A stretch of DNA of 63,457 bases, counting the filler, from Actinomycetota bacterium (GTDB lineage Bacteria > Actinomycetota > Acidimicrobiia > Spongiisociales > UBA4744): NCBI GenBank assembly GCA_013152275.1. It is 5 parts of 5 records of this genome, joined end to end, with 100 filler letters (N's around TTAATTAATTAA, not from the genome) between each part and the next. Parts side by side here need not be neighbours in the genome. Positions count along the whole stretch, not along the records: positions 27,617 to 50,081 come from JAADGS010000033.1; 4 more parts are not named here. One strand, written 5' to 3'. Below the pieces are notes generated by a model that saw nothing but the letters and a program-made list of their open reading frames with translations, made no database searches and was not told where the DNA came from. Shown here piece after piece: positions 1,111 through 45,365 of this stretch. The stretch's first letter is position 1. Every line of letters starts with the position of its first letter. A program made the translations under genes and the position numbers.

Positions 1111-1161
1111 CGTTCTCGTGACGCTTCACAGGAATAATCCCGGCCAACCGTCACGAGAACG
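1111..1161. repeat. 51-bp palindromic REP-like element, copy A (solo)
   Basis: CGTTCTCGTGACG-cttcacaggaataatcccggccaac-CGTCACGAGAACG, just downstream of coxM. Confidence 0.9.
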
Positions 1162-37305: not shown

Positions 37306-37356
37306 CGTTCTCGTGACGGTTGGGCGGGATTATTCCCGTGAAGCGTCACCAGAACG
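37306..37356. repeat. 51-bp palindromic REP-like element, copy B (solo, inverted relative to A)
   Basis: CGTTCTCGTGACG-gttgggcgggattattcccgtgaag-CGTCACCAGAACG; spacer revcomp matches copy A at 23/25. Confidence 0.9.
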
Positions 37357-40731: not shown

Positions 40732-43395
<2,664 letters not shown>

Positions 43396-43413
43396 CCCTC
43401 CCGTCCTCCATCC

Positions 43414-43464
43414 TGTTCTCGTGACGGTTCACGGGAATAATCCTGTCGAGCCGTCACGAGAACG
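43414..43464. repeat. 51-bp palindromic REP-like element, copy C (3' flank of the DUF559 gene; supplies its stop codon)
   Basis: TGTTCTCGTGACG-gttcacgggaataatcctgtcgagc-CGTCACGAGAACG. Confidence 0.9.
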
Positions 43465-44364
43465 GGATCTGAGCGCCGCCAACACCGTTTGGGACACGAG
43501 AACAGGTTCGGTGTGCACCTGATCCGTCGTGAACCGAAGGACCTTCCATCCCAGCAGCTCGAGCTCGTTCTGGCGTCGTGCGTCGGAGGCGCGCTGGGAA
43601 CGGGTGGCATGGAATCGATGCCCGTCGATTTCGACGGCGACACGTGCGTCGGGCCACGCGGCGTCGACGCGGGCCACGAATCGATCTCCCGCTCTAATCT
43701 CGTGTTGCGCCTGCGGTGGGAGCACGGCGAGTGGCTCGACGAGACGAAGGAATTCGCGCTCGTAGGTGCTCTCCGCCACCGGACCGCTCACACGTTCCGT
43801 GAGAATGTTCGCCAGCACGCCGACACCGCTCCGGCCTCTCCCCCTGCGAACCGAAAGCCGCCGATCGATAGCAGACAGCGTCGTCAGCTTGTCCCTCAAC
43901 GCCGCCTCGAGCGCGTGCTCCACCTGCCTCCAGTGCACGACTGCACCCAGGTCCATCAAAGTCCTCTCCACCGTTGTGACCGGAAGTCCATCCATCTCGG
44001 CAATATCGCTGCCGTCGAACTTCGCCGAAGTGTGCACGACAACATCCGATGTCCTGAGACGCCTGGGTCGGGGTGTGAGAATCTCAACGGGATCTCCGTA
44101 TCGCCGAATCCCCCAGAGCTGGGCCGCAGCCCTGTGTGACACGGCGGATCCGTCTCCTCCTTCGAGAACGGCAGTCCAGAGGCGGAGAAGCCAGCTCGTC
44201 GGCGATCCGGCGACGCGATACACGCCGTCTCCAACCGAAAGCCAACGACCCACAGCGACGCGATGGGCGATCTCATTCGTGGAACATCCCAGCTTCATGG
44301 CCTGGGCGCGGCTCACGACCCCTTGCTGTGCCGAGGCGAGTTCACCGAAGGCTCGTTCGTCCAT
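43429..44364 (-). CDS. AbiEi-like wHTH plus DUF559/Vsr-like PD-(D/E)XK nuclease protein
   Basis: Q.GVVSRAQ, GVYR, SHRAAA.LWG, PVTTVERT..DL, ES.YE, RVD.AWP...VAVEIDG..FH, D..RQN.L...GW.VLRFT. Confidence 0.9.
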   Translation of the reverse strand: MDERAFGELASAQQGVVSRAQAMKLGCSTNEIAHRVAVGRWLSVGDGVYRVAGSPTSWLLRLWTAVLEGGDGSAVSHRAAAQLWGIRRYGDPVEILTPRPRRLRTSDVVVHTSAKFDGSDIAEMDGLPVTTVERTLMDLGAVVHWRQVEHALEAALRDKLTTLSAIDRRLSVRRGRGRSGVGVLANILTERVSGPVAESTYEREFLRLVEPLAVLPPQAQHEIRAGDRFVARVDAAWPDARVAVEIDGHRFHATRSQRASDARRQNELELLGWKVLRFTTDQVHTEPVLVSQTVLAALRSRSRDGSTGLFP

Positions 44365-44407
44365 GGCGCCATCCTGCGCCATTTGACGGATCGAGTGAAG
44401 CCCCTTC

Positions 44408-44458
44408 CGTTCTCGTGACGCTTCATAGGAATAAACCAGGCCAAACGTCACGAGAACG
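44408..44458. repeat. 51-bp palindromic REP-like element, copy D (5' flank of the DUF559 gene; supplies the FkbM stop)
   Basis: CGTTCTCGTGACG-cttcataggaataaaccaggccaaa-CGTCACGAGAACG; same orientation as C. Confidence 0.9.
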
Positions 44459-45191
44459 GGAGGAACAGGTAGTTGTTCTCGCCCGGTGTCACTTCGCCAA
44501 CCGGAGACAGCTCCCCGTCGGCGAACGCGTGCATCCGGTACCCGTGCCGGGCAAGGAACTCCACCACCTCCACGGGATGCCTGCCATATCTGGCGAGGTG
44601 GCGCTCTTCGATCTCGATCAAGATCGTTGGACGCCAGCGCTCGATGGACGTGCGGGCCCCTTCGAGAAGGGCGAGTTCCGCTCCTTCGATATCGGCTTTG
44701 ATGAAATCGATCCGGTGAAGCGCCTTGTCGACCACGAAGCGATCGATGGTCGTCATCGGAATCGTCAGGGAGTGCAGGTCCGTGAACCCGTCCGGAACCT
44801 CTTCTGCGTCCTTGCCGTAGGCCGAGGCGAGGAACGCCCGTGTAGTGAACGGTACACCGTGCCAGGAGGGAATCAGGATCTCCATGGACCCTTCCTCATC
44901 GGCGAGGCCGACACGATGGACACTGACGGTGTGCATCCCCAGGAGCCGCCTCGCGCGCTCTATCGCGCGATGGGATCGCGACCTCGGCTCGAACGCATGG
45001 ACCTGCCCGCTCGGCCCAGCCCTGCGGGCAAGCAGGTACATATACGTTCCCCCTGCCGCGCCAACGTCGAAGCAGACGTCACCCGGTGCCACGACCGTCT
45101 CCAGCACCAGCATCTCTTTCTCGAGATACGGGATCTGTTCCAGCAAAGCTTCGAAGGCTCGCTGCGCCCACCTCGATCTCAGCGGCCGCAC
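44448..45191 (-). CDS. FkbM-family methyltransferase
   Basis: FDVGAAGG, VHAFEP, IDFIKADIEGAE. Confidence 0.88.
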   Translation of the reverse strand: MRPLRSRWAQRAFEALLEQIPYLEKEMLVLETVVAPGDVCFDVGAAGGTYMYLLARRAGPSGQVHAFEPRSRSHRAIERARRLLGMHTVSVHRVGLADEEGSMEILIPSWHGVPFTTRAFLASAYGKDAEEVPDGFTDLHSLTIPMTTIDRFVVDKALHRIDFIKADIEGAELALLEGARTSIERWRPTILIEIEERHLARYGRHPVEVVEFLARHGYRMHAFADGELSPVGEVTPGENNYLFLPFS

Positions 45192-45365
45192 GGCAACCGT
45201 TTCCCGGACACCCGTCGCACGACCGTACTCCTCTCTTCTCCGAATACTTGTGAACGGACCATGCCCTCCAGGCTACCGAGCCGAGTCCGACCGCTCGGAG
45301 GACGGCACCGATTCGCCGCACATCTGGACTCTGCGCCGTGCAGCAGAAGCTACCCTGTGACGTTC

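Follow-up and report, generated by a model that had tools for sequence, protein, structure and literature searches.

Short palindromic repeats at the ends of genes are common in bacteria. To our knowledge, the tyrosine transposases that accompany repetitive extragenic palindromes (REPs), known as RAYTs, are the only enzyme family tied to such repeats, mainly in Proteobacteria. Here we analyse a locus in a 63,457-nucleotide stretch of DNA (the window) from an Actinomycetota bacterium of the class Acidimicrobiia (assembly GCA_013152275.1), where a gene encoding an AbiEi-type winged helix joined to a Vsr-type DUF559 domain is flanked on both sides by a 51-bp palindrome. The best reading of the gene and its repeat is that of a cognate pair, a REP/RAYT-like partnership built on an unrelated nuclease. 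The balance tilts slightly towards a protein that recognises the arms of its own palindrome, cuts at or near it, and keeps, copies or overwrites the repeat family in a RAYT-like manner.

The nearest known system is formed by RAYTs and REP repeats or their doublets (REPINs), together termed REPtrons, in Proteobacteria (PMC3116915, PMC3337134, PMC5581495, and PMC3733652). The locus resembles a REPtron in that a usually single-copy gene of nuclease type is framed by its own palindromic repeat, which occurs in tens of extragenic copies, mostly just after stop codons and between convergent genes. Moreover, each gene clade has its own repeat class, a genome usually carrying a single gene of a given class, transmission is predominantly vertical, and loss of the gene is accompanied by decay of the repeats. 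The enzyme, however, combines an AbiEi-type winged helix with a Vsr/DUF559 PD-(D/E)xK domain, whereas RAYTs are HUH Y1 transposases. The repeat is a single palindrome of 45–55 bp with a 20–25-nt centre, in contrast to REPs of 20–40 bp or a REPIN doublet. In addition, the coding end of the gene runs into the repeat, and the host belongs to the Actinomycetota (Acidimicrobiia), both unlike the known REPtrons.

The genome studied (G000; 3.07 Mb in 100 contigs, 63.8% G+C) was compared with 40 further genomes of the order, including two sister species of the same genus (G001 and G002), and with public contigs. The palindrome, whose class is designated F1, has 13-bp arms (CGTTCTCGTGACG and CGTCACGAGAACG) separated by a 25-nt spacer. 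As the initial annotation had described, the gene lies between two such copies whose spacers point the same way, at a site between acnA, encoding aconitase, and a gene for an FkbM-type methyltransferase (Table 1). The framing is constant among orthologues: all nine with both flanks visible (G000, G006, G021, G023, L040, L043, L044, L045, and L046; 47–79% identity) carry the 51-bp palindrome on both sides. Six orthologues come from public contigs, namely L040 (47% identity), L043, L044, and L045 (75–78%), L046 (52%), and L047, a tenth locus cut at its 5′ end in which the downstream F1 copy is visible. In G021, two tandem F1 copies stand on each side of the gene, and in L055 a 42-residue fragment is followed by two palindromes of a neighbouring class. 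Among the 41 genomes of the order, orthologues (53–79% identity) were found in G000, G006, G021, and G023 only. The F1 repeat occurs in seven (58 copies in G000, 31 in G002, 25 in G001, 14 in G023, 11 in G006, 4 in G021, and 1 in G008), so that all four genomes with the orthologue possess the repeat, and none of the 34 genomes without the repeat possesses the orthologue.

This framing is kept in at least four different genomic contexts. The gene is located between acnA and the FkbM gene in G000 and G006, downstream of acnA but turned round in L040, beside pncB-like and SDR genes in G023, beside a P450-like gene in G021, L046, and L047, and beside genes for a molybdenum (Mo) oxidoreductase and an acyl-CoA dehydrogenase in L043–L045. 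In five aligned orthologues, translation runs into the arm of the downstream copy in one and the same frame, so that the arm encodes the C-terminal tail of the protein (RSRD, RSCD, or GFSD), and the upstream copy ends 32–44 nt ahead of the start codon; the spacing of about 43 nt is retained among close orthologues. The direct orientation of the flanking copies seen in G000 turned out not to be constant, as four loci have direct and three have inverted copies among seven orthologue loci. Frameshifts or internal stops were observed in L045 and L046 (metagenome contigs) and in the homologues L019, L140, and L144, with the palindrome framing kept; these may be decaying copies or sequencing errors.

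The protein sequence matches the Pfam families AbiEi_4 (27.2 bits; cut-off 25), DUF559 (36.9 bits; cut-off 20.6), and MTES_1575 (40.1 bits; cut-off 38.2). The C-terminal antitoxin domain AbiEi_1 scores 15.1 bits, below its cut-off of 22.2, and is matched by 5 of 52 homologues; MTES_1575 and AbiEi_4 are matched by 50 and 49 of the 52, respectively. In the AlphaFold2 model built on these 52 homologues (predicted local distance difference test score 92.1, predicted template-modelling score 0.80), the N-terminal part of about 200 residues is matched by Foldseek to AbiEi (6y8q, E 3e-6, about 200 columns) and to Rv2827c (1zel). The C-terminal part of about 100 residues matches the catalytic domain of the homing endonuclease I-Bth0305I (3r3p; template-modelling (TM) score 0.81–0.82) and the DUF559 structure 3hrl (TM 0.77), and more weakly Vsr (1cw0; TM 0.45). 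Residues G26, A80, D234, E245, H252, and D261 are invariant in the 52 homologues and D247 is nearly so; the conserved Asp/Glu/His positions are the putative catalytic residues. With dN/dS values (ratios of non-synonymous to synonymous substitution rates) of 0.08–0.25 between orthologues, sequence comparison shows the nuclease genes to be under purifying selection. VSR, DUF559, and DUF2726 are placed together in one PD-(D/E)XK group in PMC3424549.

The N-terminal part thus shares its family (AbiEi_4) and fold with the antitoxin of the AbiE type IV toxin–antitoxin system. Unlike AbiE, the gene has no adjacent AbiEii toxin gene and carries a nuclease domain where the partner would act. The initial annotation had already noted the missing partner, and the five AbiEii matches of the genome all lie on contigs other than that of the locus. 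One short contig (G000:C92:563-2188) holds a weak AbiEi-like N-terminal match (E 7e-4) beside AbiEii matches, and this is probably a true AbiE toxin–antitoxin pair, unlike the gene studied here. With the EDxHD/Vsr-type homing endonucleases, the protein shares the C-terminal fold (3r3p, weakly Vsr) and the conserved Asp/Glu/His positions. In contrast to these, its gene lies outside any intron or intein, between two complete palindromes, and its putative targets are many and intragenomic. We know of no transposase family to which the protein belongs. The RAYT-type family PF01797 (Y1_Tnp) has no match in the whole genome, although control genomes were matched; other transposase families were not screened.

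The association extends to the protein family. Homologues at 25–42% identity lack the F1 arms and have palindromes of their own, 45–55 bp long, on their flanks. The 200 nt upstream of each gene were aligned to positions −75 to +170 around the stop codon, and a score of at least 22 was counted. A shared segment of about 50 bp was found at 47 of 62 homologue loci and at 2 of 399 control open reading frames (ORFs) of G000 (control mean 9.5, 99th percentile 12.5; one of the two passing controls is an F1 pair). The 62 loci are not independent, since orthologues from related genomes are included; L042, L045, L047–L049, L051, L052, and L054–L056 (partial matches, short flanks, near-duplicates) are left out of the count. 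This alignment replaced an earlier strict palindrome classifier, which gave 24 of 62 loci with both flanks matching and mis-sorted obvious cases.

The palindrome class follows the protein phylogeny. On a quick IQ-TREE tree of 56 proteins (six dropped for length or partial match; two rows with an internal stop), the twelve classes assigned from flanks need 17 changes, compared with a mean of 38.2 after shuffling, and none of 200 shuffles was as low; the F1 class forms one clade with support 99. Both expectations of the initial annotation, that homologues are framed by palindrome families of their own and that repeat class co-varies with protein phylogeny, are therefore borne out. G000 itself has three paralogues, each framed by its own class: F1 with 58 copies, a 55-bp class with 32 genome copies (C95:22224-23099), and a 47–49-bp class (19 copies) that stands as a tandem pair on either side of its gene (C17:26313-27194). 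Three genomes that possess the gene of the GCGTGAG class contain 19, 16, and 20 copies of its palindrome, and two that lack this gene contain 1 and 0. In G009, eight copies of this class, including the two framing the gene, are identical over 49 bases. The ACCCAGGG class has 5–53 copies in five genomes. Palindromes of most classes have (C)CGTT...AACG(G) or GTT...AAC tips in common but diverge in their inner arms, and this comparison of sequences hints at a common cutting or target motif beside a class-specific reading motif.

Beyond the order, the protein family is present in 51 of 151 sampled genomes of the phylum (48 of 148 without the unpublished genomes G041, G086, and G157, on which no other claim rests). 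When the flank test was applied to the best loci of 27 genomes across the phylum, excluding loci of two unpublished genomes, eight passed. The pattern therefore reaches beyond the order but is far from universal.

In G000, the F1 repeat is present in 58 copies (at most two mismatches per arm), every one exactly 51 bp long and 37 with perfect arms. When all flanks are pooled, 104 of 116 have a C next to the element, which makes the palindrome effectively 53 bp long. The initial annotation had recognised an oriented, conserved spacer core, which the genome-wide set confirms: the 58 oriented copies give the consensus TTC-a/g-n-n-GGAATAATCC, and each position of GGAATAATCC is conserved in 46–57 of them. 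The spacer is found in either orientation relative to its surroundings. Within the spacer of the G000 copies, the core is too conserved to show covariation. Judged from rough ORF calls, F1 copies lie directly behind stop codons, most adjacent stops being within about 30 nt, and 20 of 57 copies are located in convergent gaps compared with 361 of 1924 gaps genome-wide. Eighteen adjacent ORFs terminate inside an F1 copy, 12 by the TGA of the arm and six by a stop in the spacer. The stop codon that the downstream copy provides to the nuclease gene, which had been singled out at first, is thus real and not peculiar, the upstream copy likewise ending the FkbM gene. Two other identities were considered and set aside. 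Integron attC sites do not fit, since the arms misfit the GTTRRRY core and the copies are dispersed and not arrayed, and the arms do not fit LexA or another operator.

Comparison with the sister species indicates how the repeats behave over time. Spacers at orthologous sites are about 80% identical, and 7 of 51 comparisons of G000 with G001 or G002 reveal a spacer that has been inverted in situ without loss of its sequence (36 the same way, 8 ambiguous); accordingly, flanking copies are direct at some orthologue loci and inverted at others. The mean number of arm mismatches at orthologous sites is 0.42–0.43 in G000, 1.29 in G001, and 1.18 in G002, the copies of the latter two having been ascertained more strictly. 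Compared with G001, the arms of G000 are better in 16 pairs, equal in 7, and worse in 1; compared with G002, they are better in 17, equal in 8, and worse in 3. Eight F1 copies specific to G000 were examined in detail. For four of them, relatives retain a damaged version: an identical insert of about 45 bp splits two in G002 (the G001 counterpart of one of these has a mutated arm), a third is truncated in G002, and the fourth corresponds in G006 to a short degenerate palindrome. Of the remaining four, two coincide with breaks in synteny and two face unrelated sequence, one of the latter facing a palindrome of another class in G002. Because of these damaged remains, the larger F1 number in G000 is attributed to better retention.

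Two further observations concern damaged sites. The insert of about 45 bp in G002 lies in the spacer core of two F1 palindromes (orthologues of 37306-37356 and G000:C90:127231; loci L156, about 2207-2310, and L255) in opposite orientations, and could represent another mini-element, nested in the first and directed at its spacer. In G001, 504 nt of internally repeated, G+C-rich sequence (C1:24550-25055) replace the palindrome orthologous to G000:C80:5089.

Palindromes can also be absent or replaced as whole units. At two of the four sites of the GCGTGAG class compared across genus g3, clean empty sites show CCCGG where relatives carry the palindrome, as expected for a discrete unit of 45–49 bp inserted blunt at CC^GG or with a 2-bp CG duplication. 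In this respect, the repeats resemble miniature inverted-repeat transposable elements (MITEs), which are likewise short, non-coding, present in many copies, bounded by terminal inverted repeats, and present or absent as discrete units. A target-site duplication is not established for them, at most a 2-bp CG being possible, which is indistinguishable from blunt insertion at CC^GG, and unlike in the parent insertion sequences of MITEs, the coding unit has a whole palindrome and not one arm at each end. Moreover, different palindrome classes occupy the same orthologous position in different genomes at five sites. At three of these, all in genus g3, the class matches the gene that the respective genome itself carries; the other two are the acnA–FkbM gap and C3:55053.

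The acnA–FkbM gap bears directly on the suggestion that recombination between the two copies excises the gene and leaves a solo repeat. The gene is absent and acnA abuts the FkbM gene in G001, G002, and G003, as a comparison of relatives had been expected to reveal, but no single F1 repeat is left in any of them. A solo palindrome of another class, with TCTCGTCAATGCTG arms, occupies the gap in G001:C50 and G002:C2 (loci L030 and L029, about 1445-1505), and G003 has no palindrome there, so that the excision model is not supported at this site. The TCTCGTCAATGCTG-arm class is that of the paralogue common to G000, G001, and G002. No excision or circle joints are listed in the assembled contigs of five sequencing runs, in which rare forms cannot be revealed.

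Taken as a cognate pair, the gene and palindrome could function as follows. AbiEi binds inverted repeats at its own promoter and autoregulates through them. By analogy, the winged helix would bind the palindrome arms, and the nuclease domain would nick or cleave at or near the palindrome. The cut would lead to copying, for example by repair from another copy, and the repeat family would be kept intact and copied or overwritten at gene ends, as is thought of RAYTs for REP repeats. Cutting followed by repair copying would explain both the overwriting at fixed sites and the position of the gene between two whole copies. Whether AbiEi-DUF559 genes and their palindromes constitute a second, independent class of bacterial repeat-propagating systems, in which a PD-(D/E)xK nuclease with sequence specificity maintains, overwrites, and spreads a palindrome of 45–55 bp at gene ends, working by cut and repair (homing-like conversion) and not by HUH transposition, widespread in Actinomycetota and possibly with several orthogonal pairs per genome, is in our estimation evenly balanced.

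Several points weigh against this reading. Binding, nicking, and spreading by the protein are inferred; of the REPtron-like partnership proposed initially in place of a toxin–antitoxin pair, it is the comparative part that has passed its tests. The repeats appear old and immobile, since 28 of 31 copies in G002 and 24 of 25 in G001 lie at sites orthologous to G000 copies (flanks 79–98% identical, mostly 85–93%). G001 and G002, without the gene, retain 25 and 31 copies with at most two mismatches per arm, or 33 and 38 by a looser pattern, and the consensus used for the arm-mismatch comparison was first read from G000. A new F1 insertion is not evident either, as none of the eight G000-only copies faces a clean empty site in G001, G002, G006, or G003, and no target-site duplication is established. 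Below the threshold of the flank test are 15 of the 62 family loci (several of them score 17–20 with visible arms) and 19 of the 27 phylum-wide loci. The winged-helix part does not differ more between classes, in terms of identity, than the nuclease part does; the ratio of identities within and between palindrome classes is 1.30 for the winged helix and 1.5–1.6 elsewhere. Finally, six other F1 pairs at most 1.3 kb apart and one 2 kb apart stand around unrelated ORFs, compared with about 1.4 close pairs expected by chance (our own estimate), so that bracketing by F1 copies alone is not special.

A selfish nuclease gene of the homing type is the first alternative, and we regard it as unlikely. 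The palindromes would then be landing sites and not products: a break made by the nuclease in a solo palindrome would be repaired from an occupied locus, which would insert the gene together with a restored copy on each side, and the solo copies would be spread or kept by something else or serve as host gene-end hairpins. In its favour, the nuclease domain is like that of I-Bth0305I, the unit occurs in at least four contexts and always between two complete copies, it is found in both orientations near acnA and is missing from the acnA–FkbM site of three relatives, and most solo copies are old and fixed. The number of genes is difficult to reconcile with homing, as each class has a single gene in a genome that offers tens of potential landing sites, and in the other two classes of G000 the orthologues group by species as if vertically inherited. 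The gene also does not interrupt a single target but lies between two complete palindromes, and the empty acnA–FkbM sites have no F1 copy. Moreover, homing leaves unexplained both the decay of solo copies where the gene is missing and the joint change of class in solo copies and gene.

The seven F1 pairs around other ORFs raise the second alternative, that another enzyme, host recombination, or replication slippage spreads the palindromes and that the nuclease gene simply travels along as cargo. A 2-kb ORF of 642 codons (G000:C41:3927-6028) stands between two identical F1 copies where G001 has a single copy, and in G002 an F1 copy joins the flank of this ORF to the site of G000:C90:9902. F1 palindromes thus also mark insertions, deletions, and rearrangement joints, as would be expected of a passenger cassette, and the persistence of repeats in genomes lacking the gene points the same way. 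Cargo status would, however, require about a dozen independent captures by repeat classes, each by the matching protein clade, and would not account for the conserved arm frame and spacing to the start codon. Control genes are almost never framed (2 of 399), and the genome has no RAYT gene, other transposase families not having been screened. We consider this explanation improbable.

According to the third alternative, which we find more doubtful still, the palindromes are host gene-end elements under selection, such as terminator or mRNA-stabilising hairpins, or binding sites, and the protein is a regulator or a chromosome-organising or defence factor that uses them as operators without any mobility; at its own gene, the adjacent palindromes would provide for autoregulation and insulation. 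The position of copies right at gene ends, the 18 stops inside them, the enrichment in convergent gaps, and the positional stability over long times are consistent with this, as is the autoregulation of AbiEi through inverted repeats. A regulator would not be expected to keep an intact, conserved nuclease centre under purifying selection. Furthermore, selected host elements would hardly come and go as discrete units that leave clean empty sites, or occur as identical copies at many sites of one genome, and point mutations in both arms would not easily produce the exchange of classes at fixed sites.

A chance arrangement, in which 58 copies in 3 Mb happen to flank the gene as they flank some others, is rejected by the counts and retains virtually no weight, because the bracketing recurs at 9 of 9 orthologue loci in different genomes and contexts, 47 of 62 family loci stand against 2 of 399 controls, and both flanks of one given gene would be hit with a probability that we estimate at about 4 in a million.

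The genetic signature known from RAYTs is carried here by a different enzyme, throughout an order of Acidimicrobiia and in part of the phylum. If the protein acts on its palindrome, the origin of many actinobacterial repeat families would be explained, and a large set of genes annotated as AbiEi antitoxin or DUF559 would be re-annotated and given a function. Moreover, pairs of a nuclease and a site of about 50 bp that are naturally orthogonal would be on offer, and the long persistence of repeat populations in genomes would become testable. We found no literature linking DUF559 or AbiEi-type proteins to dispersed palindromes (subscription journals not covered). An indirect hint comes from PMC9881135, where 'DUF559 domain-containing protein' is enriched among predicted targets of programmed inversion (odds ratio 14.3).

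The window consists of several joined contigs (352 N), with the locus on contig C52, and contains 13 matches to the arms with at most two mismatches, compared with 5.35 expected; none of 100 shuffles attained 13. Besides the two copies at the gene, it includes two solo F1 copies.

Table 1 Coordinates of the nuclease gene, its flanking palindromes, and solo F1 copies in the window.
Feature	Position	Strand	Remarks
Downstream F1 palindrome copy	43414..43464	.	Arm in frame forms the C-terminal tail (RSRD); spacer contains the TGA stop 43429-43431
AbiEi-type winged helix + DUF559/MTES_1575 (Vsr-type PD-(D/E)xK) gene, 311 aa	43429..44364, stop included	-	
43-nt leader, upstream palindrome to ATG	44365..44407	-	Contains TTCACT-17-CAGGAT-6-ATG
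Upstream F1 palindrome copy	44408..44458	.	Arm gives the TGA stop of the FkbM gene, 44448-44450
Solo F1 copy	1111..1161	.	Sister species: orthologous site, spacer flipped, 24/25 identical in reverse
Solo F1 copy between two convergent genes	37306..37356	.	One sister species: insertion of about 45 bp in the spacer

The downstream copy has one mismatch in its left arm (TGTT...). Unrelated sequence occupies the site of the second solo copy in the other sister species examined and in a member of a further genus. An Rfam scan of positions 43000-44900 gave a lone microRNA model on one palindrome (22.5 bits; gathering score 100), which was rejected as sub-threshold. Contigs of the sequencing runs end at the palindromes, where depth peaks, and one contig of 6.5 kb spans 43440-45200.

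The ORF on the minus strand extends over 43429-44451 (340 codons from a GTG), and the ATG at 44364 is the probable start of the nuclease gene. In the leader, both hexamers that had been proposed as a promoter just inside the upstream copy are present, but CAGGAT, which could be a −10 box, could equally be a ribosome-binding site. At the neighbouring gene, the FkbM protein ends in ...LFLPFS in G000 and in ...LFF in G002 and, by the same reading, in G001.

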